A stretch of DNA of 10,347 nt, taken from a virus (Duplodnaviria > Heunggongvirae > Uroviricota > Caudoviricetes). Position 1 is the first letter of the stretch. Each line of letters starts with the position of its first letter. The translations under genes and the position numbers were made by a program. Under the pieces are notes generated by a model. That model made no database searches, was not told where the DNA came from, and saw only the letters and a list, made by a program, of their open reading frames with translations. The stretch lies in the IMG/VR virus record IMGVR_UViG_2695420380_000013. One strand, 5' to 3'. This document shows positions 1-10,347 of the stretch, piece after piece.

Positions 1-31
1 TACACTAAATCAGTAAGTTGGCAGCATCACC
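1..31 (-). mobile_element. IS1 terminus (IRL end; body of the element lies left of the window)
   Basis: nt 1-31 tacactaaatcagtaagttggcagcatcacc is the reverse complement of the IS1 left inverted repeat (GGTGATGCTGCCAACTTACTGAT...). The same 31-mer recurs at 4097-4127, where it terminates the internal IS1 fragment. Confidence 0.85.
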
Positions 32-117
32 CCGCCACAGAACAATTATTGCTTTTGCCGTTGATGACAATAAAGTTTTTATCGCAGTGTCAGGGCGTGG
101 CGGATATCAAACTTTGG

Positions 118-1200
118 TCATTTTCTCTGGCTGATCTTTACCGGATAACCATCCCGAAGATCAATTAAGTGCTCCGGTTCAGAAGCAAACCATGCATAAG
201 ATCCCCACGCCAATTCTGGTATTGCCTTTTTAAAAGGCAGAGCACTTCTGTCCATAAATGCCGTAAGGAATGCAAGATTTTTCTCGCTGAACCCAGCGTC
301 AATAGCCAAATGAGTGAGAGTAACTTTTCGTTCCCTGTTTATAGGCCCATCTGTCGCAACTACTTCAGTGAAAACTACAAGCATGTCCGAACCCGTTCGG
401 TCCTCTCCCAAATCAATCAAAATAATATCTGGAAGTGCTTTTGAGGCATCAATATTCAGCCCCAATGCTTTTGCCAATACATCATCCTGAGCAACAACTT
501 TATTCCCGGATTCAGACAACCAGAGCACAGTTGGATTCTTAAGAAAATTAGGAGCAAAAACTTCGATGACGGCCTTAGCTATTGTACTTGACGGGCCCGG
601 AGCTAAAGTTCTCTTCTCTCCATTTGGGAAAGTGACGACTACGGCATCAGCAGCAATCACTGCCCCTGATTTCAATAAACGCAACCTAGCAAGAGCGGCT
701 TTGTTCAAATGATTTTCTTGCCAGGAACTTATTGCACTCAGCAGCGAATCTCCTTCAAGCCCGGCATCAAAGAGTGCTGCAAAAGAGCGATTCAAACTGT
801 AACGAGGACGAGAGGATGTGGTGGGTATACCTTTACGCTCAACAATTGCATTGCAAGGTATTAGGCCATTTTTTATAGTTTCATCACGTATTGGCTCACG
901 CGTATTTTCCGCATACCATGCATCAGCAGGCCTTATCTTTTGTTTAGAGAAAGTCATCTTTACCCAGCTTTCTCTGGACGCATCATCAGTAAGAGCAGCC
1001 TGCGAATCTCCCATACTTACAACCTGGCTGGGCCTTATCCATCGCCCCAGCCCCTCAACCGCACCAGCATAAAACATGACAAAAATTGTTTTTGCAGCTA
1101 TTTCCCGAATTAAATATCCACGATTCTCAGTCCCTTCAGGGAAAATTAATTGTAATCTTTCCCGGATAACATTCAATGGGGGAACAACAGGCAGATTCAT
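118..1200 (-). CDS. Candidate Type II restriction endonuclease (360 aa), partner of the upstream methyltransferase; family not established (possibly BsuBI/PstI-like)
   Basis: Long minus-strand ORF whose ATG (1200-1198) overlaps the methyltransferase stop (1199-1197) as ATGA, indicating translational coupling in an M-then-R operon. No ATPase or methyltransferase motifs. AT-rich like the methyltransferase gene. The endonuclease call rests on context; the family guess is from memory of the N-terminal region and is unverified. Confidence 0.55.
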   Translation of the reverse strand: MNLPVVPPLNVIRERLQLIFPEGTENRGYLIREIAAKTIFVMFYAGAVEGLGRWIRPSQVVSMGDSQAALTDDASRESWVKMTFSKQKIRPADAWYAENTREPIRDETIKNGLIPCNAIVERKGIPTTSSRPRYSLNRSFAALFDAGLEGDSLLSAISSWQENHLNKAALARLRLLKSGAVIAADAVVVTFPNGEKRTLAPGPSSTIAKAVIEVFAPNFLKNPTVLWLSESGNKVVAQDDVLAKALGLNIDASKALPDIILIDLGEDRTGSDMLVVFTEVVATDGPINRERKVTLTHLAIDAGFSEKNLAFLTAFMDRSALPFKKAIPELAWGSYAWFASEPEHLIDLRDGYPVKISQRK

Positions 1201-3029
1201 GCAATCATCACTCCATAGAAACCAGCGATAGTTCTCTCAATAATCCGTCTGTGGACGCCAGCATCAATTAACGATTGAATCTCCATCACCTGCTCCAGAG
1301 AAGGCAACGGGATTGAATTCAATTCATAGGCCGAAACAGCAACACTTCCGCTTATACACCTGAACGCCCGATCGACAACATGCGAATTAAGTAGCATATC
1401 AATAACATCAGGGCGAACCGCAGAGAACAATCCGTTTGAATATACAATATTAATATGGTTTTCAACTACTACGCCACCAGTTTCATCTATAAATCCCTGA
1501 GGTAAAATTGCCGCTAAAATCCTTCTGTCCTGTTCCTTCGATGTTGTCCGCTGAACAAGCACACATTCAGATTTTGTCACAAGGAAACCCTGTTGTGGGG
1601 TTATATCGATATAGGGAACATGATTTTTTCTGTCTGCACTAAAACGAAAACCAGCTGAAGTTATTGATTCCGCCCAGACTAATGGGTAGCTATTTTTTCC
1701 TTTCGTCGTACGCAACTGCGACTTAAATCGATTCCAGACTAACTGACCTGTAGAGACTGAGTATCCCAGATCAGCTAAACGCGTAGACATCTGTTTTAAT
1801 ACATTAAGAAAACAGGCATCATCTTTAACGCGTGGCAAAAGCCACGTTGCTCCACCTTTTTCTATATCAACATTACCTATTTTCTCAATTTTTGCTTTGT
1901 TCAACCCCTTAGGGACAAGTGAGGATACCTGGGCCCGAACTTTATGTTCTCCCGCCTTGAATGCTGTCAACATTGTTTCCTGGAGAACATCGTCAAAGAC
2001 CCCATCCCTGTCAGTGACGAAATCAAGGGCATACGGAGTAGTTTTTTCGGTCAAAAGGGTTCGCAGCGCGGTGAAATACTGCCCACCAAGAAAAGAAGTT
2101 GGCGTAAGAAATGCAATAACTCCTGTTTTCTCTTTAACCATGCGAACAGCTAAGTCGGTGAACAATCCATATAGATTTGCATGACCAAATAACGAACGAG
2201 AATATTTTTCTCTCGTTTTAATATCGAGAGTGACACGTCCGTAAGGCGGATTCCCTACCACAAGATCATAACCAGAAAATTTATCTTGCTGAAGCGCATC
2301 AGCAACAATAATTGTATCTTCAGGCAATCTACGTTTTACCTTTACACATAGTGGCATTAGTACAGATTCGAGCAATACCAAACTCATCCAAGCCGCAAAT
2401 GGATCGATTTCTATCCCCTTTAAACGACGACTGATTCTCCTCAACATCCATTCAGGGGAAGACCCCTTGTCTTTTTTTAACATTCGAATGGCTACTGGTG
2501 CCAAAAATGCACCGCCACCACACGCAGGATCAATAACCGATGCATGAGAAAAATCAACACCAGACTTTTCAGCCAGGTCCAAGAGACGCGCTACCAAAGG
2601 TGGGGGGGTATAGTAAGCCCCCAATTCCGAACGGTAAGCGGATGGCAGCATTACCGTATAAATTGACCCAATCAGATATCCAGCGTCCTCCGCCGGAAAT
2701 TGAGCAATAAGCTCACCTGTTCGTTCAGCGAGCTCGCGTGCATCACATGGAATGTCTTCTATGTAAACAGTGTGCGGTACTGCCCTCATTTTAATGCTGC
2801 TTTTTTGCTTTTTTGCAAGGGTATCCCAATATGCAGCTACGATGCTGAAGCAGTATGAGCGGGCATGCATCAACCTTGACTGCCCGGTTTTGTAATTGCC
2901 CGCATAACCTTTGGCCATGGCTTTACAAGTTTGATATCTTTCCAGATTAGAAAACTCATTATCTGTAAAAAAATCAAAATGTTGCACATTCATAATGTAA
3001 AATCCTAATGTATCAAACATGCGGGCCAT
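1197..3029 (-). CDS. N6-adenine-specific DNA methyltransferase, gamma-like motif order (610 aa from the first ATG; an alternative start at 2993 has a better-placed AGGA)
   Basis: Translation contains GAYYTPPPLVARLL (motif X-like), VIDPACGGGAFL (AdoMet-binding motif I) and VVGNPPYGR (catalytic NPPY motif IV), followed by a ~350-aa C-terminal region consistent with a target-recognition domain. Single uninterrupted ORF. Confidence 0.9.
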   Translation of the reverse strand: MARMFDTLGFYIMNVQHFDFFTDNEFSNLERYQTCKAMAKGYAGNYKTGQSRLMHARSYCFSIVAAYWDTLAKKQKSSIKMRAVPHTVYIEDIPCDARELAERTGELIAQFPAEDAGYLIGSIYTVMLPSAYRSELGAYYTPPPLVARLLDLAEKSGVDFSHASVIDPACGGGAFLAPVAIRMLKKDKGSSPEWMLRRISRRLKGIEIDPFAAWMSLVLLESVLMPLCVKVKRRLPEDTIIVADALQQDKFSGYDLVVGNPPYGRVTLDIKTREKYSRSLFGHANLYGLFTDLAVRMVKEKTGVIAFLTPTSFLGGQYFTALRTLLTEKTTPYALDFVTDRDGVFDDVLQETMLTAFKAGEHKVRAQVSSLVPKGLNKAKIEKIGNVDIEKGGATWLLPRVKDDACFLNVLKQMSTRLADLGYSVSTGQLVWNRFKSQLRTTKGKNSYPLVWAESITSAGFRFSADRKNHVPYIDITPQQGFLVTKSECVLVQRTTSKEQDRRILAAILPQGFIDETGGVVVENHINIVYSNGLFSAVRPDVIDMLLNSHVVDRAFRCISGSVAVSAYELNSIPLPSLEQVMEIQSLIDAGVHRRIIERTIAGFYGVMIA

Positions 3030-3089
3030 AACATCTCATGGTGGCGCATAGCAAACTGGCCCGAAGAATATCACGCACCAAGTCGATCT

Positions 3090-3103
3090 CATAACCCGTT
3101 ATG
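3090..3103. promoter_or_regulatory. Perfect 6-2-6 palindrome CATAAC-CC-GTTATG about 60 bp upstream of the methyltransferase start; candidate operator
   Basis: Read directly from the sequence (cataacccgttatg). Position between the upstream small ORF and the methyltransferase start codon. No recognisable sigma70 -35/-10 pair could be placed confidently nearby. Confidence 0.25.
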
Positions 3104-3243
3104 ACAATAAATCTTTGTAGCTGAACTCACTTGGTGATTTGTCAATCATTCCTGGCCTCCAGTTCGTCCTGAATCTCTTTATCGAGTTCACCGTATTTGT
3201 TAGTCCTCATCACTCACGACTTGACTTCCAGAAATAACCTTGA

Positions 3244-3600
3244 TTATTCGGGGCTATATTTTGTCACCCTGCGTATCCGCGCTTTCGCATTACGCTCAAT
3301 CTGGATTAGCTTTTCTATATTTTTTCGCCTTTCCCGCTCCTCCTGGCGCAAGAGCCTTACATCATCTGCCAGTCTGGTTTCTCTTTTCGCCACAGAGAGC
3401 ATCCAGTCAAATGGCTCCACAACTGCACCGCAAATTTTACAGCGGACCTGACGCTCTTTTTCGTCAACCCGGACAGAGGCGTGATGGCAATATGGTCTTT
3501 CCGATGGCTCATAAAGAAAATTAACCTGATTACGAGGGTTATCCTCTTTTACCGGAAATAAAACAATATTGCTTAACTCATCTTCTGGTTTTATTTCCAT
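3244..3600 (-). CDS. Hypothetical small protein (119 aa) with a zinc-ribbon-like CHH...CxxC motif and a basic coiled-coil-like C-terminus
   Basis: ATG at 3600 is preceded by a strong Shine-Dalgarno (AAGGAGAGGAGC then ATG). Translation MEIKPEDEL...YCHHASVRVDEKERQVRCKICGAVV...RLLRQEERERRKNIEKLIQIERNAKARIRR. Same strand as, and directly upstream of, the methyltransferase. The ORF track extends it to 3657, but that start lacks an RBS. Confidence 0.6.
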   Translation of the reverse strand: MEIKPEDELSNIVLFPVKEDNPRNQVNFLYEPSERPYCHHASVRVDEKERQVRCKICGAVVEPFDWMLSVAKRETRLADDVRLLRQEERERRKNIEKLIQIERNAKARIRRVTKYSPE

Positions 3601-3657
3601 GCTCCTCTCCTTTGATGCGAATGCCAGCGGTAATTGAAGCCTGATAGCTAATTTCAC

Positions 3658-3780
3658 TCACAGTACCGCCTCCTGAAAATCACCCTGATAGAAAGCCGGT
3701 ACACGCTGCATAACTTCACTCTTCCGGCACTCGCGACAGATTATGTTCTGATGTCTGTCGTAGCGGCGTATTTCTCCGTC
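3658..3780 (-). pseudogene. 3' remnant of a paralog of the hypothetical gene at 4200-4771, cut off at the N-run/IS1 junction
   Basis: Encodes DGEIRRYDRHQNIICRECRKSEVMQRVPAFYQGDFQEAVL, which matches the C-terminus of the 4200-4538 ORF (DGEIRRYDRRQNIICSECRKSEAMQRVLAFYQGNFQKVLL). The DNA at 3658-3780 aligns with 4200-4322 at roughly 85-90 percent identity. The upstream part is replaced by NNNNNNNN plus IS1 interior sequence. Confidence 0.6.
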
Positions 3781-3788
3781 NNNNNNNN
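3781..3788. other. Run of 8 N (unresolved bases or scaffold join) exactly at the junction between the phage-gene remnant and IS1 interior
   Basis: Literal n characters in the sequence. Confidence 0.95.
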
Positions 3789-4127
3789 GCCAGCGCTGGC
3801 GCGATTTAGCCCCGACATAGCCCCACTGTTCGTCCATTTCCGCGCAGACGATGACGTCACTGCCCGGCTGTATGCGCGAGGTTACCGACTGCGGCCTGAG
3901 TTTTTTAAGTGACGTAAAATCGTGTTGAGGCCAACGCCCATAATGCGTGCAGTTGCCATGTTTTACGGCAGTGAGAGCAGAGATAGCGCTGATGTCCGGC
4001 AGTGCTTTTGCCGTTACGCACCACCCCGTCAGTAGCTGAACAGGAGGGACAGCTGATAGAAACAGAAGCCACTGGAGCACCTCAAAAACACCATCATACA
4101 CTAAATCAGTAAGTTGGCAGCATCACC
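3789..4127 (-). mobile_element. IS1 fragment: IRL end plus insA region and 5' part of insB; truncated on the insB/IRR side, with an apparent internal deletion inside insA
   Basis: Ends with the IS1 IRL reverse complement at 4097-4127. The minus-strand translation contains the InsA N-terminus ([41 protein letters not shown]) and InsB residues ([52 protein letters not shown]). Relative to IS1 as I recall it, about 85 bp between ...GGCAACTGCA and CGCATTATGGGCG... are missing, which would frameshift insA. Only about 339 of 768 bp are present. Confidence 0.85.
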
Positions 4128-4199
4128 ACAGTGCTGAACTTAATTATTCAGATTTTGGATTATGCTTTCTCTTCACGAAGTTCCGATTGTTAATTTGGC

Positions 4200-4771
4200 T
4201 CACAACAGCACCTTCTGAAAATTACCCTGATAGAAAGCCAGTACACGCTGCATAGCTTCGCTCTTCCGGCACTCGCTACAGATTATGTTTTGACGCCTGT
4301 CGTAGCGGCGTATTTCTCCGTCTGGTAATGACCAGATAAGGTCAGGATCAACCACAGATGGTTTCTTCAGATTTGCCCTTGAGAGTTTTTTGCGGGCGTT
4401 TTGCCAGTCCTTACGCGCCTGTTCAGACGGGAATAACCCGTAACCAGAGTTGTATACATCGCCACTGGCAACCAGCTCTCTGGCGAGAACACTCATCAGA
4501 TATCTTGTCGCACCTGTCTTGGCTTCCAGTTGCCGCAACGTCTCGCGACCGCTCAGACGTACAAGTTCAACAACCTGCCCTTNNNNNNNNNNNNNNAGTT
4601 GTATACATCCCCACTGGCAACCAGCTCTCTGGCGAGAACGCTTATTAAATATCTTGTCGCCCCGGTTTTAGCTTCCAGTTGTCGTAACGTCTCGCGCCCA
4701 CTCTGGCGTACGAGTTCAACAACCTGCCCCTTAATTTTTTCCCGCTCTTCCTGTGTAAATACTTTTGCCAT
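4200..4771 (-). CDS. Hypothetical phage protein (gene X), reading frame interrupted by a diverged tandem duplication and a 14-N run
   Basis: ATG at 4771 (MAKVFTQEEREKIKGQVVELVRQSGRETLRQLEAKTGATRYLISVLARELVASGDVYN...), then the N-run, then a second copy of the same segment (RQLEAKTGATRYLMSVLARELVASGDVYNSGYGLFPSEQARKDW...NFQKVLL) ending at 4200. If the duplication were collapsed, a continuous protein of about 148 aa would result. No family recognised. Confidence 0.45.
4448..4732. repeat. Tandem duplication of a ~135-bp segment (4448-4582 and 4597-4732), copies roughly 88 percent identical, separated by 14 N
   Basis: Both units begin agttgtatacatc(g/c)ccactggcaaccagctctctggcgagaac and end ...gttcaacaacctgccc(c)tt. 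About 16 scattered mismatches, so not a simple read-level duplication. Confidence 0.75.
4583..4596. other. Run of 14 N at the junction of the two tandem repeat units
   Basis: Literal n characters. Confidence 0.95.
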
Positions 4772-4786
4772 AAGCGCCCCCGGCAA

Positions 4787-5512
4787 TCACTTTTCCGACA
4801 CAATACGACCGGAGGAATCGACAATCTGTCGAACAATATCCCGGTGCTTGTTCAGCTCCCGCAACGCGGCGCAGACACGCTCCCACTTCTGGACATGACT
4901 TTTCGCCCGACGCAGTTCGCGGTTTGCCATATGCAGCGATGGTAAAACCAGGTCATCCGCTTGCGTTTCGGTGAACGATGGCAACGACTGCACAATGTCC
5001 GCCACAGTTTCTGTTTTAATTTCTTCCTGTGTTGCAGCTTCCTGTACCGGTAACGCAACACCTGCTGGCTGAGGAAAGACTTTACCATCCGTTTCCGCTA
5101 TGGATGCGGCTTTCGGCTCTGCCGGTAAATCAGCGCCCGGTATGCAGTACCGAAATTTACCGCCCTGATTCACGCGAATCAGACGCCCTTTGCTGATTGC
5201 CATGGCCAGCGATGAATTCGCCCGGCGGGAGGTAATCCCGAACATCAGTGCCAGCTCATCCGCCGTTTGTGGGCCATGTTGTTCAATCGCCTCAGTCAGC
5301 ATTTGCGCTGTCACTTTCGGTACCGGTGACACTGGTTCACTTTCACCAGCCTGAATCAGCCACCACATCGAACCCTTGTTATCCGCTTCACCACGGCGCT
5401 TCAGTTTCCACAGTTCGTTGACCGCATCTTCACGGCTGATTCCAAGGCGGGACGCCACCACATGTGAAGAGGCTCTTTTCAGTGCTTTCAGTGCGTCAAA
5501 TACAGTTTCCAT
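4787..5512 (-). CDS. Prophage protein (241 aa), DUF1627/YdaW-like, immediately downstream of the DnaC-like gene
   Basis: ATG at 5512 with GGAGG 8 nt upstream. Translation [41 protein letters not shown]... with a second similar helix-rich segment ([28 protein letters not shown]). Position after the DnaC-like gene matches Rac-like prophages. Family assignment is from memory and not verified. Confidence 0.55.
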
Positions 5513-5533
5513 TAAAACATCCTCCAACAAAAA

Positions 5534-5824
5534 TTACTTCACAACTCCCGGAAAGCTGACATTTGAACGCCAGCTATCCCAGTTAAACGTCACCCACCGA
5601 CAACCGTTCATGGTCATGCGGTCCATAATCCTCTCACCAAGAAGCGTGCTCATTGCGGCATGATTCAGGTTTGTTAACATCCCGACACTGCACAGTGATG
5701 CTGTCCGGCGATCAATTATCTGGTGCAATACCACCTGCTCGTTTTTCGTCTCCCGCTGAATGCCTATTTCATCCAGGACCAGCAAATCAACCCCGCAAAG
5801 CTCCTGTAAAAATTTTTCACCGGA
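5534..5824 (-). CDS. DnaC-like replicative helicase loader, C-terminal part only (5' portion lies in the 593-N run)
   Basis: Translation ...LLVLDEIGIQRETKNEQVVLHQIIDRRTASLCSVGMLTNLNHAAMSTLLGERIMDRMTMNGCRWVTFNWDSWRSNVSF closely parallels the E. coli DnaC C-terminus (Walker B LLVIDEIG, NQIVDRR, GMLTNSN, LGERVMDRM, FNWDSYR). Stop at 5534-5536. Confidence 0.85.
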   Translation of the reverse strand, partial: SGEKFLQELCGVDLLVLDEIGIQRETKNEQVVLHQIIDRRTASLCSVGMLTNLNHAAMSTLLGERIMDRMTMNGCRWVTFNWDSWRSNVSFPGVVK

Positions 5825-6417
5825 NNNNNNNNNNNNNNNNNNNNNNNNNNNNNNNNNNNNNNNNNNNNNNNNNNNNNNNNNNNNNNNNNNNNNNNNNNNN
5901 NNNNNNNNNNNNNNNNNNNNNNNNNNNNNNNNNNNNNNNNNNNNNNNNNNNNNNNNNNNNNNNNNNNNNNNNNNNNNNNNNNNNNNNNNNNNNNNNNNNN
6001 NNNNNNNNNNNNNNNNNNNNNNNNNNNNNNNNNNNNNNNNNNNNNNNNNNNNNNNNNNNNNNNNNNNNNNNNNNNNNNNNNNNNNNNNNNNNNNNNNNNN
6101 NNNNNNNNNNNNNNNNNNNNNNNNNNNNNNNNNNNNNNNNNNNNNNNNNNNNNNNNNNNNNNNNNNNNNNNNNNNNNNNNNNNNNNNNNNNNNNNNNNNN
6201 NNNNNNNNNNNNNNNNNNNNNNNNNNNNNNNNNNNNNNNNNNNNNNNNNNNNNNNNNNNNNNNNNNNNNNNNNNNNNNNNNNNNNNNNNNNNNNNNNNNN
6301 NNNNNNNNNNNNNNNNNNNNNNNNNNNNNNNNNNNNNNNNNNNNNNNNNNNNNNNNNNNNNNNNNNNNNNNNNNNNNNNNNNNNNNNNNNNNNNNNNNNN
6401 NNNNNNNNNNNNNNNNN
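5825..6417. other. Run of 593 N (gap or masked segment) covering the 5' part of the DnaC-like gene
   Basis: Literal n characters. ORF-track entries crossing it are artefacts of translating N as X. Confidence 0.95.
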
Positions 6418-6560
6418 AGAAATATGATTCACACAACGCTGGTTGTTCGTGCCGCTTACCGGGAGCAACCAGGGGTTTTCAAAATTCCGGTCCGGCCCAA
6501 AAAACGTCGTCGCTCGCTGAACAAATTCCGTTCCCGCTTTCCCGGTCGCCGCCAGGTATC

Positions 6561-6910
6561 NNNNNNNNNNNNNNNNNNNNNNNNNNNNNNNNNNNNNNNN
6601 NNNNNNNNNNNNNNNNNNNNNNNNNNNNNNNNNNNNNNNNNNNNNNNNNNNNNNNNNNNNNNNNNNNNNNNNNNNNNNNNNNNNNNNNNNNNNNNNNNNN
6701 NNNNNNNNNNNNNNNNNNNNNNNNNNNNNNNNNNNNNNNNNNNNNNNNNNNNNNNNNNNNNNNNNNNNNNNNNNNNNNNNNNNNNNNNNNNNNNNNNNNN
6801 NNNNNNNNNNNNNNNNNNNNNNNNNNNNNNNNNNNNNNNNNNNNNNNNNNNNNNNNNNNNNNNNNNNNNNNNNNNNNNNNNNNNNNNNNNNNNNNNNNNN
6901 NNNNNNNNNN
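6561..6910. other. Run of 350 N (gap or masked segment) covering the 3' part of the O-like replication gene
   Basis: Literal n characters. The 143-bp island at 6418-6560 between the two runs is open in two minus-strand frames, so the true reading frame and gene boundary cannot be decided. Confidence 0.95.
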
Positions 6911-7510
6911 ATCGGCTTTCAGCGCATACGCTGAATCGGCTTCCGGTGTCGAGCCTGCTGGCTGACCAGGATTGACGGTCTGAACATCCCCTGCCTGGTT
7001 CGTGGCGTTTTTTACGCCATGGACCATAGTGTTTTGATCTTCTTTATCTGTATCTTTATCTGTATCTGTCGTGACTCGTCGTGACATGTGCGTGACATTT
7101 CGTGACGCGCCGTGACAATCGCCATTTTGTTCCCGCTTTCTTTCCCTCTCTCGCTGCGCCCTCTTGCGCTCTGCAGGAGATTTTGCGGTTTGCGAAATAT
7201 TGCCGTTGTCCTCTTTAAGCACCTGGCGTTTTTCCCATCCAGTGATTAAATCACCATCAAGTACCCGCCCCTGCATCGTCTGCAAAATTGAATCAATTAC
7301 CTCTTCTGTCACGTCGAGCGCACTTGCCAAATCTTCTGTCGTGACATCAATGTGACCTCGCGTGACATTTCGTGACGCGCTCACCAGGAGGTGGATATAC
7401 ACTGCCATCACTGTTGCAATTGGCTGCCCTGACACCCTGGCAATTGTTCGCCACTTAGGGTCATTTGGCATGTCATGCCATAATCTGAGCCAGGCGTTAG
7501 CCATACTCAC
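6911..7510 (-). CDS. Lambdoid replication initiation protein (O-like replisome organizer), N-terminal part; 3' end unresolved in the N-run
   Basis: Minus-strand ORF starting GTG 7510 or ATG 7504 (MANAWLRLWHDMPNDPKWRTIARVSGQPIATVMAVYIHLLVSASRNVTRGHIDVTTEDLASALDVTEEVIDSILQ...). Sits directly upstream of the DnaC-like gene and downstream of the cro-like/YdaT-like genes. Contains iteron-like DNA repeats that encode a repetitive acidic linker (VTTDTDKDTDKED), as in lambda O. Confidence 0.65.
7041..7116. repeat. Iteron-like repeat cluster inside the O-like gene: 12-bp tandem tctttatctgta x2, then five CGTGAC hexamers; candidate phage replication origin
   Basis: Direct reading: tctttatctgtatctttatctgta at 7041-7064, and cgtgac at 7070, 7080, 7091, 7101 and 7111. 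The 21-mer gcgtgacatttcgtgacgcgc at 7090-7110 is repeated exactly at 7360-7380. AT-rich tract immediately adjacent (7031-7068). Confidence 0.5.
7340..7380. repeat. Second CGTGAC/TGTGAC hexamer cluster, including an exact 21-bp copy of 7090-7110
   Basis: cgtgac at 7340, tgtgac at 7351, cgtgac at 7361 and 7371. The 21-mer gcgtgacatttcgtgacgcgc at 7360-7380 is identical to 7090-7110. Lies in the 5' part of the O-like gene (the encoded ASRNVT peptide is repeated too). Confidence 0.45.
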
Positions 7511-7575
7511 CTCTTCTGATACCGAATCTTTTTACTCACGAGTTGCCGGGAGCGATTCGATATGGCTATTGTCAG

Positions 7576-8001
7576 TCAATGTACTGCCACAGCATTTCCT
7601 GCCGGGCCACCACGGTTCATCTGATTGAAACCGGCGATTGCCACTGCGACAAAATCATCAGCGTCTCTCACCAGTCGTTCATGCGTCTCCACCAGTTCCC
7701 GAAAATAAGCTGAACTGTGGCTGCGCATTCGAGCCACCAGCGGAGGTGGCATTGCCCTTTCGATCGCAGGTAACAACGCCTGAATTTTTTCAACAGCGTC
7801 AGGGGTGTCTTTATCCAGCCAACGGAAAATCTTTTGGGTGTTGAGATAAAGCGTGTTGTGCTTGCTGTCGTTATGCAGAACCGGAAACGTCATTCCCAGT
7901 TCGAAATAAACCCTGGTTATTTCAGCTGCCGGAACTTTTTCACCGTCCGGATGCGCCCAGGCTTTCATCGCCATGCGGATGTGTTCATGCTTGATTTTCA
8001 T
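7576..8001 (-). CDS. YdaT-like prophage protein (141 aa; occupies the cII position of the early-right operon)
   Basis: ATG at 8001 overlaps the stop of the upstream cro-like gene (ATGA). Translation MKIKHEHIRMAMKAWAHPDGEKVPAAEITRVYFELGMTFPV... Gene order cro-like, this gene, O-like, DnaC-like mirrors ydaS-ydaT-ydaU-ydaV of Rac-type prophages. Family name is from memory. Confidence 0.55.
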   Translation of the reverse strand: MKIKHEHIRMAMKAWAHPDGEKVPAAEITRVYFELGMTFPVLHNDSKHNTLYLNTQKIFRWLDKDTPDAVEKIQALLPAIERAMPPPLVARMRSHSSAYFRELVETHERLVRDADDFVAVAIAGFNQMNRGGPAGNAVAVH

Positions 8002-8261
8002 GAATCAACCCCCGCCGATGGTTGTGTGTTAGCCTGAAACTCAGCAGGCAAGCCGTCAGTTGGGTTGGGGTAGGTTTTACTGTCAATCTCATGTGGGGTC
8101 ACCACCCATCCCGTTGCTTCACACCAACGTAATATTTTTTCTCCTGTAAGTTTTGCACGCCCCGTTATAACGTGGCTGACCATCCCTTGGGATGCGCCAA
8201 CAATCTCAGCAAATGAACTCTGGGTTATATGAAAATGATGCAAATATTCTCCAAGATTCAT
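7998..8261 (-). CDS. Cro-like HTH DNA-binding protein (YdaS-like), 87 aa from the ATG at 8261 (ORF track extends to a TTG at 8288)
   Basis: ATG at 8261 preceded by AGGG about 6 nt upstream. Translation MNLGEYLHHFHITQSSFAEIVGASQGMVSHVITGRAKLTGEKILRWCEATG... contains a helix-turn-helix signature (QSSFAEIVGASQGMVSHVITGR). Transcribed divergently from the cI-like repressor gene. Confidence 0.75.
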   Translation of the reverse strand: MNLGEYLHHFHITQSSFAEIVGASQGMVSHVITGRAKLTGEKILRWCEATGWVVTPHEIDSKTYPNPTDGLPAEFQANTQPSAGVDS

Positions 8262-8297
8262 AATCCGCCCTATGTGATGTGTTACCAATGCATAATT

Positions 8298-8337
8298 AAT
8301 AGCACTGTTATTTTTAAAAGTAAATAGTGATGCTATT
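8298..8337. promoter_or_regulatory. Operator pair in the cro-like/cI-like divergent intergenic region: two 15-bp palindromes AATAG-N5-(C/T)TATT
   Basis: aatagcactgttatt at 8298-8312 and aatagtgatgctatt at 8323-8337. The same palindrome family recurs twice at 9434-9474. Located between divergent start codons at 8261 and 8373. Confidence 0.55.
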
Positions 8338-8372
8338 TCAAAGTGATTAGCAATCTTATTAGAATTGGATGT

Positions 8373-8873
8373 ATGAAAAGAAAATCATTGTCAGACACCG
8401 ACCTCAACGCCGCCAGAAGACTGAAAGAAATCTGGATGGCAAAGAAATCTCAGTTGGGATTGACTCAGGAACGTGCGGCGGAAATTATGGGGTTTTCAAC
8501 ACAAGGGGCGGTAAGTCACTACCTAAATGGTCAAACCCCACTAAACCTTGAGGCTGTTCTAAAGTTTGCTGGCTTACTGAAAGTTCCCCCTGAGTCAATC
8601 AGGCCAGACATGGTAGATTTGCTGCAAATTGCAAGGATGTATTGTCGAGAACCACAGCAAGATAACATAGTCGCATTACCAGCAGACACAGAACAAACAG
8701 AGGATGAACTACCGTTTGCCGTAGAGCCGATGGAACGAGATTTAATCCATACGTTCAGAGCTTTTCCGAAAGAAGATCAAGAACACATGCTTCAGGAGAT
8801 GAAAGATAAAAAAGAATCAATGGATCGTACGGTTGCGCGGTGGTTAGCTGCACAAAAAGGCCGTCGCGCCTAA
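8373..8873 (+). CDS. cI-like HTH (XRE-family) repressor without a peptidase S24 domain (RacR/PaaR-like), 166 aa from the ATG at 8373
   Basis: Translation MKRKSLSDTDLNAARRLKEIWMAKKSQLGLTQERAAEIMGFSTQGAVSHYLNGQTPLNLEAVLKFAGLL... has a classic HTH (LGLTQERAAEIMGFSTQGAVSHYLNG) and an acidic C-terminal tail. No Ser/Lys autocleavage motifs seen. Divergent from the cro-like gene and directly upstream of the antitoxin/toxin pair. Confidence 0.8.
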   Translation: MKRKSLSDTDLNAARRLKEIWMAKKSQLGLTQERAAEIMGFSTQGAVSHYLNGQTPLNLEAVLKFAGLLKVPPESIRPDMVDLLQIARMYCREPQQDNIVALPADTEQTEDELPFAVEPMERDLIHTFRAFPKEDQEHMLQEMKDKKESMDRTVARWLAAQKGRRA

Positions 8874-8892
8874 ATCAGAGGAGATATGTAAA

Positions 8893-9087
8893 ATGAGTAC
8901 AGTCCTTTCCCCAATGGTTTCAGAATTTGAGACAGTTGAGCAAGAAAATAGTTACAACGAATGGCTGCGGGCCAAAGTAGCAGCAAGCCTCGCGGATCCC
9001 CGCCCGGCGATTCCGCATGATGAGGTAATGGCGGAAATGGAACAAATTATTGCCCAAATTGCTGCTGCAACTCACAGAGGTGAATAA
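8893..9087 (+). CDS. Small antitoxin (64 aa) partnered with the ParE-family toxin; ParE-associated (PaaA-like) antitoxin candidate
   Basis: ATG at 8893 with a GAGGAG Shine-Dalgarno upstream. Its stop TAA (9085-9087) overlaps the toxin ATG (9087-9089) as TAATG. Size and position are typical of type II antitoxins. No clear ribbon-helix-helix signature, so the family is inferred from context. Confidence 0.65.
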   Translation: MSTVLSPMVSEFETVEQENSYNEWLRAKVAASLADPRPAIPHDEVMAEMEQIIAQIAAATHRGE

Positions 9088-9377
9088 TGTTACCCGTTTT
9101 ATGGCTACCATCTGCTCGTGATGATTTGCGCCAGATCGTAGCCTACATAGCTAAAGAAAATCCCGCGGCAGCACGCAGAATGAAAATTCGAATTGAAACA
9201 TCCGTTTTGCCGCTCACAGAGCATCCTTACCTGTATCCTCCAAGCGAGCGAGTTCTTGGTCTTCGTGAAATTGTAACTCATCCTAACTACATCATCCTTT
9301 ACCGAGTAACAGCATCAAGCATAGAAGTAGTAAATATTGTGCATTCTCGAAGACAGTATCCAGGCAAAAACAGTTAA
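9087..9377 (+). CDS. parE: ParE/RelE-superfamily toxin (96 aa)
   Basis: Translation MLPVLWLPSARDDLRQIVAYIAKENPAAARRMKIRIETSV...YIILYRVTASSIEVVNIVHSRRQ matches the conserved ParE pattern (DL..I..YIA..NP.AA.R....I......YRV.....EI.RVLH.R). Translationally coupled to the upstream antitoxin. Confidence 0.85.
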   Translation: MLPVLWLPSARDDLRQIVAYIAKENPAAARRMKIRIETSVLPLTEHPYLYPPSERVLGLREIVTHPNYIILYRVTASSIEVVNIVHSRRQYPGKNS

Positions 9378-9393
9378 TTATTCCCGCCGACAG

Positions 9394-9418
9394 AACCACC
9401 TTAGGGTGGTTTTTTCTT
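9394..9418 (+). terminator. Rho-independent terminator downstream of the toxin gene
   Basis: Stem accacc (9395-9400), loop ttag, stem ggtggt (9405-9410), followed by a T-run (tttttcttg) starting 17 nt after the parE stop. Confidence 0.65.
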
Positions 9419-9433
9419 GCCCCAACAAAAAAC

Positions 9434-9474
9434 AATAGCGATGCTATTTACATCAAAAAAATAATGATGCTATT
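9434..9474. promoter_or_regulatory. Second operator pair (two 15-bp palindromes of the same AATAG-N5-CTATT family) overlapping a candidate plus-strand promoter
   Basis: aatagcgatgctatt at 9434-9448 and aataatgatgctatt at 9460-9474. A possible -35 tttaca (9448-9453) and -10 tattgt (9471-9476) with a 17-nt spacer would drive the downstream small genes. Confidence 0.5.
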
Positions 9475-9655
9475 GTTTCAGGCGTCAACCCACCCCGCCC
9501 CACAGAATGCAGGGCAATACTTCGAGTTACCAGACAGTGGTCAGGGGTTAAGTAGCCAGCCCGAGGCGTAAGAACATGACGGCAGGGTTCAATCTTTAAC
9601 TATGCAGCAGGTTTTTTGTTCCGCCACCCCGGCGTTAAGGGGAAATGAGGTCAGC

Positions 9656-9808
9656 ATGGATACTATCGATCTTGGCAACAACGAATCTCTGGTGTGCGGC
9701 GTGTTCCCTAACCAGGATGGAACGTTTACCGCCATGACGTATACCAAAAGCAAAACGTTTAAAACCGAATCTGGCGCGCGTTGCTGGTTAGCCAGAAACA
9801 CTGACTGA
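9656..9808 (+). CDS. Small prophage protein (50 aa), YdaF-like (DUF1391-like)
   Basis: ATG at 9656 preceded by GAGG 5 nt upstream. Translation MDTIDLGNNESLVCGVFPNQDGTFTAMTYTKSKTFKTESGARCWLARNTD. Family recalled from Rac-type prophages, unverified. The ORF track's longer start at 9602 lacks an RBS. Confidence 0.55.
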   Translation: MDTIDLGNNESLVCGVFPNQDGTFTAMTYTKSKTFKTESGARCWLARNTD

Positions 9809-9819
9809 TGAGGCTGACG

Positions 9820-10185
9820 ATGGAATTTAAAGATTTACCGTCTGATGTACAGAAAACAGCAGCTCATACATTGCATTCTGTGCTGCGAGAAATCGGGAAA
9901 GATATTGCAAGCGAGCCAGCAAAAGATCTGGCCCGGAAAATCAAGACCGCTTTCGTTGAGCTTTATAATGTTGGCACTGACTCTGAAACTGTCGAGACCA
10001 AGACCGTAAGTTCACCAATATTCTCACTTGAGCCAAGCGTATTATCAGGTGAAATATGCACCGAGATTTCCAGCGAACTGCTTCCGGTAATACGAGAAGC
10101 AATTCGCCGTCGCGGTTTGGATGGAAGTTATGATCATGACGTTCTGCAAGTTCTCAGGACAATGGTGACTTCACTGGGGATTTGA
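9820..10185 (+). CDS. Hypothetical prophage protein (121 aa from the ATG at 9820)
   Basis: ATG at 9820 preceded by GAGG (9810-9813) with a 6-nt spacer. Translation MEFKDLPSDVQKTAAHTLHSVLREIGKDIASEPAKDLARKIKTAFVELYNVG... No recognisable motif. Confidence 0.5.
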   Translation: MEFKDLPSDVQKTAAHTLHSVLREIGKDIASEPAKDLARKIKTAFVELYNVGTDSETVETKTVSSPIFSLEPSVLSGEICTEISSELLPVIREAIRRRGLDGSYDHDVLQVLRTMVTSLGI

Positions 10186-10315
10186 TCCCTGCGTCCTCTA
10201 AGCTTTTGATATAGCGGTCCTCCAAGAAGCGGTAAATTTTGTCGAAATCATCTTTTCCCTCTGGTTTATTCAGAGGATTACAGGACCCGTAAGTAGCGGC
10301 ATACATTTCAACCGT
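10154..10315 (-). pseudogene. Possible 3' remnant of a gene truncated by the right-hand IS1
   Basis: Minus-strand frame is open from the IS1 junction (10315) to a TGA at 10156-10154 (...TVEMYAATYGSCNPLNKPEGKDDFDKIYRFLEDRYIKSLEDAGIKSPVKSPLS). No start codon with an RBS inside the window. Overlaps the 3' end of the 9820-10185 gene by about 30 nt. Confidence 0.25.
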
Positions 10316-10317
10316 TT

Positions 10318-10347
10318 GGTAATGACTCCAACTTATTGATAGTGTTT
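10318..10347 (-). mobile_element. IS1 terminus (IRR end; body of the element lies right of the window)
   Basis: nt 10318-10347 ggtaatgactccaacttattgatagtgttt is the IS1 right inverted repeat (GGTAATGACTCCAACTTATTGAT...). Same orientation as the IS1 terminus at 1-31 and the internal fragment. Confidence 0.85.

Follow-up and report, generated by a model that had tools for sequence, protein, structure and literature searches.

A scaffold attributed to Shigella sonnei very probably holds a prophage remnant between independent IS1 copies rather than a transposed unit

Results

Organization of the window and its IS1 termini

The 10,347-nt stretch of DNA considered here (IMG/VR virus record IMGVR_UViG_2695420380_000013, classified within Caudoviricetes; taken at its full length and referred to hereafter as the window) begins and ends in a few tens of nucleotides of the insertion sequence IS1. 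Between these termini lie prophage genes that include a restriction–modification (R-M) pair, a replication module, and an immunity region with toxin–antitoxin (TA) genes, together with a further, partial copy of IS1. The element itself (IS1 family) is 768 bp long, encodes insA/insB′, and generates a 9-bp (8–10 bp) target-site duplication (TSD) on insertion. An original prediction, made from the letters of the window alone, had read its layout in two ways: biologically, as an IS1 composite element able to mobilise or delete the region between its copies, and technically, as a contig broken at repeats. The features on which these two readings turn are the following (window coordinates; IRL and IRR denote the left and right terminal inverted repeats of IS1).

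1..31, minus strand: left flanking IS1, final 31 nt (IRL end), at the scaffold end (exact match)
3781..3788: scaffold gap of 8 N (Ns in the public record)
3789..4127, minus strand: partial IS1 running from the interior to the IRL end (IS1 positions 345–768 minus 75 nt), assigned to the IS1 of the ompW locus
4128..4582, minus strand: 455-nt island made up of intergenic DNA and a DUF977 gene, truncated at its N-terminal end, from a different prophage, judged to be mis-scaffolded here
4583..4596: scaffold gap of 14 N (N run)
10318..10347, minus strand: right flanking IS1, initial 30 nt (IRR end), at the scaffold end (exact match)

Positions 1–31 are the reverse complement of the IRL end of IS1 (GGTGATGCTGCCAACTTACTGATTTAGTGTA, 0 mismatches), whose sole further match in the window is at 4097–4127, and positions 10318–10347 reproduce the IRR end (GGTAATGACTCCAACTTATTGATAGTGTTT) exactly on the plus strand; the chance expectation for either match is 0 (200 shuffles for the IRL end). 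Tested as terminal inverted repeats, IRL (GGTGATGCTGCCAACTTACTGAT) and IRR (GGTAATGACTCCAACTTATTGAT) are both present at the window ends. The two stubs point the same way, the transposase being encoded on the minus strand, as genes called in complete genomes bear out (e.g., in locus L008), and the flanking IS1 copies are direct repeats. The original prediction had thus identified the first 31 nt, the last 30 nt, and their direct orientation correctly.

Reverse-complemented, the window is identical to an entire database record, CXCT01000150.1 (GCA_001249045.1; 10,347 nt), Ns included, and both of its ends are therefore assembly ends, formed by 31- and 30-nt stubs of a multi-copy repeat. Sister drafts break at the same two places (contigs L009 and L022 begin at window position 36–37, and L010–L012 stop at 10312), bearing out the technical half of what had been proposed; most contigs that carry both of the genes used in our look-ups (the restriction endonuclease, REase, and a 125-aa protein) span 2–10 kb. 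Four runs of N, all present in the public record, interrupt the window (3781–3788, 4583–4596, 5825–6417, and 6561–6910), the longer two measuring 593 and 350 nt vs 501 and 289 nt in every relative. This departure from the spacing in relatives marks the long runs as gap-size estimates; the idea that the N runs are masks added to the data set was rejected, given that they stand in the NCBI record with sizes that disagree with every relative. The window is one complete scaffold of a short-read draft, in which five contigs are joined by estimated N gaps.

IS1 being multi-copy in Shigella, the assembler would have halted about one k-mer (30–31 nt) into each copy. We infer the assembler and its k value, as part of a Velvet/SSPACE/GapFiller-type pipeline, for this record; SSPACE and GapFiller are greedy and can produce false joins (PMC5320598). 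Isolates with the neighbouring accession prefixes CXCU and CXCY are S. sonnei from the Holt 2012 collection (PMC5447701), and we infer that the isolate behind the CXCT record is an S. sonnei of that collection, near-identity to S. sonnei genomes supporting the species assignment. The accession of the record itself turned up in none of the papers searched for it.

The segment lies between full-length IS1 copies at a Qin-type prophage site

Looking up the genomic context of the REase and of the 125-aa protein, with the longest contigs read, led to 12 different complete chromosomes (4.78–5.03 Mb), among them CP010829 (FORC_011) and CP060117 (UKMCC1015), which are S. sonnei according to the papers that describe them. 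Window positions 1–87, 90–3780, 4597–5824, 6418–6560, and 6911–10347 are found at 99.9–100% identity in 12 of 12, with the exception of L007 (UKMCC1015), which lacks window 2609–5146. Both junctions in all 12 chromosomes are occupied by a full 768-bp IS1 in direct orientation (one copy measures 767 bp); the left and right copies differ by 0–1 nt, their insA/insB′ frames are open, and the distance from IS1 to IS1 is 9,509 nt in L003. Full IS1 at identical junctions in 12 complete genomes proves linkage to real IS1 copies, so that the physical linkage beyond the window ends, which the original prediction had called unproven, is now established at one locus.

The same chromosomes dispose of a simpler reading, in which the terminal nucleotides would be solo IS1 end remnants or a chance similarity. 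The window itself shows just 30–31 nt at each end, as this reading would have it, but the matches are exact with 0 expected, and the presence of full 768-bp copies at the same junctions in 12 complete genomes has already refuted it for the lineage; we accord it next to no probability.

In the complete genomes the block sits at the ydfI...ynfE/F (Qin-type) prophage site. One flank carries dcp, ydfG, ydfH, ydfZ, and a Mannitol_dh gene, and the other ynfE/F-type molybdopterin genes, ynfG, ynfH, dmsD, and clcB (we take the gene names of both flanks to follow the order in E. coli K-12). Intact relatives without IS1 run leftwards from the REase gene into parD–parE, DUF968, rusA, Q, lysis, and head genes (E. 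coli FDAARGOS_943, L017). The segment is what remains of the centre of a lambdoid prophage at a Qin-type site.

The left and right IS1 junctions differ

Inspection of the complete IS1 copies for target-site duplications, the check that the original prediction had put forward, gives a divided answer. Five of the 12 genomes (L003, L007, L016, L019, and L020) show CAACCGTTT on either side of the right IS1, a 9-bp duplication that belongs to this copy alone; around the left IS1, no duplication exists in any of the 12. The left copy of the right IS1's duplication is retained in the window at 10309–10317, and two loci, L005 and L009, preserve the empty site, with a single CAACCGTTT and an intact 66-aa open reading frame (ORF). 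With a 9-bp TSD to itself and the corresponding empty site preserved in these loci, the right IS1 inserted alone, into the 66-aa phage ORF.

The left IS1 is flanked by TGTTATATG (outer) and CCGCCACAG (inner) throughout the 12 genomes. Its outer flank lies 48 nt upstream of the Mannitol_dh gene (ydfI) and its inner flank falls inside the parE gene of the intact prophage. This copy marks the point at which a deletion or recombination event took away the late half of the prophage, and its lack of a TSD is what an IS1-mediated deletion would leave.

To the right of the block, three junction types were distinguished (loci L003, L006, L007, L008, and L013–L021 compared; 12 closed genomes). Besides the five genomes with CAACCGTTT on both sides, two continue from the right IS1 directly into TTTCCGGTT, and five continue into CGACCCGTG, beside a truncated molybdopterin (ynfE/F-type) gene. 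A further IS1 lies 1.24 kb to the right of the right IS1, with TTTCCGGTT as its own TSD in L007 and an empty site in L009. The TTTCCGGTT junction is the product of recombination between the right IS1 and this further copy, and the CGACCCGTG junction is a larger deletion; the three types are interconvertible by recombination or deletion between IS1 copies. The state of this junction (5 TSD-intact, 2 recombinant, and 5 deletion) could be used as a lineage marker in S. sonnei.

As a history of the locus, we propose that the two IS1 copies arrived separately. The right copy represents a simple insertion into a small phage ORF, with its own 9-bp duplication, and the left copy a deletion or IS1–IS1 recombination that took out the span from upstream of ydfI to mid-parE, with the late region of the prophage in its entirety; the flanking copies serve as substrates for further IS1–IS1 deletions, which differ by strain and are visible to the right of the segment.

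The block between the copies shows no signs of transposition as a unit

Tn9 and the r-determinant of R100 have the same formal layout, with direct IS1 copies flanking a block, and a composite transposon of this kind would have arrived, or could leave, as a unit together with the R-M and immunity/TA region. The bracketing on which the original prediction had based its composite element is real: in 12 complete chromosomes a 9.5-kb block is flanked by two full, identical, potentially active direct copies of IS1. A mobilising unit is nevertheless unsupported. The right copy, with its own 9-bp TSD and empty site, inserted alone; the left copy has no TSD at all; and the outer flanks of the whole, TGTTATATG on one side vs CAACCGTTT, TTTCCGGTT, or CGACCCGTG (by strain) on the other, show no duplication. 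The block is located, moreover, where relatives have the intact prophage, and is colinear with it.

Nor is the unit found on plasmids, in phage records, or in E. coli genomes: both IS1 junctions are absent from 5,426 complete E. coli genomes, none of 72,556 plasmids and none of 50,697 phage records contains the R-M cassette, and the IS1-flanked unit was seen only at ydfI...ynfE/F in a non-exhaustive search of closed S. sonnei genomes. Finally, IS1 is so abundant in Shigella that bracketing by two copies is in itself unremarkable; the reference chromosomes contain 229–348 IS insertions, of which IS1 accounts for 46–73% (PMC7373316). With this abundance, and with a third IS1 ~8 kb outside the left copy in the loci that were retrieved, IS1 bracketing is to be expected by chance. 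We consider a composite transposon very improbable. The ability to delete, which had been claimed alongside mobilisation, is plausible, in that IS1–IS1 deletions are visible immediately right of the segment in different strains. The IS1 copies at this locus demonstrably mediate deletions, and there is no sign of their acting as the ends of a transposed unit.

The internal IS1 piece and its 455-nt flank match the ompW locus

The third, truncated copy of IS1 noticed in the original prediction is present, as the partial IS1 at 3789–4127, but it appears not to be of this locus, being instead a piece of the ompW locus that stands between N gaps. Window 3781–4596 (816 nt) takes the place of 125 nt (L003 4817–4941) common to all relatives. 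The 455-nt island next to the IS1 piece is 90% identical to the resident DUF977 sequence vs 99.6–99.8% to the DUF977 regions of other E. coli prophages. Its source came to light when the truncated products of the window were looked up by exact match; a homology search with the partial DUF977 product returned only representatives of 90% clusters, at no more than 96% identity, and did not locate the source. The reconstructed full-length DUF977 protein is present in E. coli and S. boydii records.

The identical junction between IS1 and its flank recurs, base for base, in L028–L030 (including S. sonnei 3226-85) at ompW–yciC–yciB. There, the island has a full IS1 at one end and runs on for 9 nt past window position 4582 to reach IS600 at the other, and in other drafts it is an orphan contig of 432–707 nt. 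That other S. sonnei assemblies place the same junction at ompW, in the interval from IS600 to IS1, argues for a scaffolding error in the window, and with an 8-N gap to the left of the IS1 piece there is no defined truncation junction. Greedy scaffolding or gap filling would have plugged a gap in the paralogous DUF977 gene with this small, repeat-flanked ompW contig. Scans of the genome-contig and viral-contig collections, which evidently hold no S. sonnei drafts, returned no instance of the internal IS1/flank junction.

A real, strain-specific rearrangement, for example an IS1-mediated transfer of the ompW island into the resident DUF977 gene, would also account for the arrangement: the piece stands in the public record, and Shigella genomes do rearrange via IS copies (PMC7373316). 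Against this, both junctions are N gaps and not sequence, and the piece stops within 9 nt of its ompW IS600 boundary instead of reading into the resident gene. The joins would have to be out of register, duplicating ~135 nt of paralogous sequence while losing 125 nt, and no such arrangement occurs in the 12 complete genomes or in 4 long draft contigs. The two larger gap sizes in the scaffold, being wrong by 61–92 nt, further indicate that the scaffolding is approximate. We therefore hold a real rearrangement to be decidedly unlikely.

At the ompW site, L028 (3650–6140), L029, and L030 contain a second lambdoid prophage remnant of S. sonnei, in the form of a 464-nt DUF977 fragment with IS600 on one side and IS1 on the other (in L028, two IS1 copies next to each other). 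This remnant shows the extent of IS-mediated decay at the ompW site.

Two smaller anomalies set the window apart from its relatives. At window 88–89 it reads “tg” where all ~18 relatives, 100%-identical S. sonnei included, have 68 nt of the parE remnant (L003 1058–1125). The difference reflects a 66-nt deletion particular to this strain or else an error of the assembly, the scaffold end being 57 nt away; the deletion junction was not seen in a scan of the genome-contig collection, in which S. sonnei drafts are evidently missing. The other anomaly lies within the internal IS1 piece, which (at window 3948–3957) is without the 75 nt between two TGCAGTTGCC direct repeats; this loss is probably a gap-filling artefact. 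A natural IS1 variant was considered as its source but found no backing, the best matches listed in complete E. coli genomes being all two-piece, with no single-piece match among them. The 66-nt loss, the 75-nt loss, and the unequal overhangs at the window ends may all be assembly or gap-filling errors near contig ends.

Gene content of the remnant

The remaining features of the window, read from left to right, are as follows.

32..89, plus strand: what is left of a parE-family toxin gene of the prophage (3′ part), with the IS1 junction inside the gene (L001 match)
118..1200, minus strand: BsuBI/PstI-family type II restriction endonuclease, 360 aa (Pfam PF06616, PF17728; PADLOC REase_II 2.8e-128)
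1197..3029, minus strand: N6-adenine DNA methyltransferase, 610 aa (Pfam N6_Mtase/Eco57I; PADLOC MTase_II 1.8e-300)
3244..3657, minus strand: small phage protein, called as 118 or 137 aa (gene calls; zinc-ribbon match sub-threshold only)
3658..3780, minus strand: 3′ part of the resident DUF977 gene, and end of scaffold contig 1 (L003 4694–4816, in the 99.9% block 90–3780)
4597..4771, minus strand: 5′ part of the resident DUF977 gene, and start of scaffold contig 3 (window 4597 = L003 4942)
4787..5512, minus strand: DUF1627 phage protein (Pfam 3.9e-93; gene calls)
5534..7504, minus strand: replication module of DnaC-like ATPase and replisome organiser (O-like) (gene calls; Pfam IstB_IS21/Bac_DnaA)
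7576..8261, minus strand: ydaT (CII analogue) and ydaS/cro-like genes (Pfam YdaT_toxin, HTH_3; function from PMC8630535, PMC9986795)
8373..9377, plus strand: paaR2-like CI repressor, PaaA2 antitoxin, and ParE toxin (Pfam HTH_3, PaaA2 3e-23, ParE_toxin 1.8e-17; PMC8630535)
9656..10185, plus strand: DUF1391 (YdfA-like) gene and 125-aa gene (gene calls)
10154..10317, minus strand: 3′ part of the 66-aa ORF split by the right IS1 (intact ORF in L005, L009)

The toxin gene remnant at the left end was identified through window 32–87, which matches L001 5877–5932 within an annotated RelE/ParE toxin gene (5677–5988). Beside it, the adjacent REase and N6-adenine methyltransferase genes qualify, on sequence grounds, as a predicted type II R-M system of the BsuBI/PstI family. 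The locus in UKMCC1015 (CP060117) bears on this system, having at L007 5492/5493 a ~1.85-kb deletion with GTA microhomology. Lost with it are 141 codons from the start of the methylase gene, all of the small gene and of DUF977, and the greater part of DUF1627; the REase gene there is full length with one amino-acid change. This suggests that R-M is dispensable or inactivated in UKMCC1015.

The replication module is interrupted by the scaffold gaps at 5825–6417 and 6561–6910. Clusters of GTGAC(A) repeats lie within the replisome-organiser gene at 7078–7116 and 7338–7376; they resemble the iterons of an origin, as in lambda O.

In the immunity region, the HTH_3, PaaA2, and ParE_toxin genes are consecutive at 8373–9377, with ydaS/ydaT divergent from them, and constitute a three-gene TA module. 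In CP-933P, the functional counterparts of CI, Cro, and CII are PaaR2, YdaS, and YdaT, respectively (PMC8630535, PMC9986795). Three copies of an AATAG(T/C)GATGCTATT-like motif (8316–8338, 9427–9449, and 9453–9475) flank the paaR2–paaA2–parE2 operon, one in the cro/CI intergenic region and two downstream of parE. By analogy with lambda, the three copies would fit operators of OR and OL type, the TA genes being placed as rexAB are in that phage. The product of the 125-aa gene further right has no Pfam match.

Discussion

We conclude with high confidence that the window is a short-read scaffold of S. sonnei carrying a prophage remnant between independent IS1 copies, that this remnant is not a transposed unit, and that the internal IS1/DUF977 piece was mis-scaffolded into it. 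The structure is of a known kind in a well-studied organism, and ordinary for Shigella. Its IS1 copies resemble others in Shigella in their exact termini, their 768-bp length with open insA/insB′, and the 9-bp TSDs of the right copy and the next downstream IS1; they depart from these in that the window holds just 30–31 nt of each copy and that the left copy, as a deletion junction, has no TSD. Among IS1 composites (Tn9, the R100/NR1 r-determinant, and the IS1-flanked argF segment of E. coli K-12), the present block has its counterpart in the arrangement of two direct full IS1 copies around a multi-kb accessory block, deletable, amplifiable, and movable in principle, but it is unlike them in having no duplication round the unit, an independent TSD on one IS1, a single location, and a content colinear with the resident prophage.

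Two prophages offer the closest frame for that content. Qin of E. coli K-12 occupies the same chromosomal site (dcp–ydfG–ydfH–ydfZ–ydfI / ynfEFGH–dmsD–clcB) and has ydfA/dicB-type genes in common with the remnant, while CP-933P of E. coli O157:H7 has a like immunity region with ydaS, ydaT, and paaR2–paaA2–parE2 (PMC8630535, PMC9986795). Unlike either, the remnant has a PstI/BsuBI-family R-M pair in its nin region and has had both arms removed at IS1 copies. The technical side of the window is equally familiar from repeat-induced breaks and mis-joins in pipelines of Velvet + SSPACE + GapFiller type (PMC5320598), with ends about one k-mer into a repeat, wrong gap sizes, and a misplaced contig, although these do not readily account for the asymmetry of 31 vs 30 nt or for the 75 nt missing from the internal IS1 copy.

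Several points weigh against our conclusion. The call of an artefact at 3781–4596 was reached by comparing assemblies, and a real, strain-specific rearrangement there keeps a small probability. The absence of the unit elsewhere extends to the collections at hand, and the context look-ups to the longest contigs only. Just two of the 12 complete genomes are confirmed as S. sonnei from papers, the rest being assigned by near-identity and shared junctions. The 75-nt deletion in IS1 and the 66-nt loss at 88–89 have no demonstrated cause, and overhangs of 31 nt on the left and 30 nt on the right cannot both be explained exactly by a single k value.

The extent of the block between the two IS1 copies may also be non-accidental, in that two addictive modules, the PstI-family R-M pair and paaA2–parE2, might hold it in place. 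Killing of cells that lose the block by IS1–IS1 recombination would explain why the flanks have eroded differently from one S. sonnei strain to another while the block itself was kept in 12 of 12 closed genomes, and a stabilising role has been proposed for paaA2–parE2 in CP-933P (PMC8630535). The state of L007, with the first 141 methylase codons missing and one substitution in the REase, runs contrary to an R-M system still active in such a role, and we regard this explanation as doubtful.

For genome scans, the window illustrates that k-mer-sized IS stubs at both ends of a record signify an assembly break, and that N-flanked inserts in a scaffold can be foreign. In Shigella, with its very many copies of IS1, an IS1-bracketed block alone does not indicate a transposon. 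The process of IS1-driven decay is already well described for this group (PMC7373316); the present locus is a clean, small case of stepwise prophage decay, in which independent IS1 insertions with TSDs were succeeded by strain-specific IS1–IS1 deletions.

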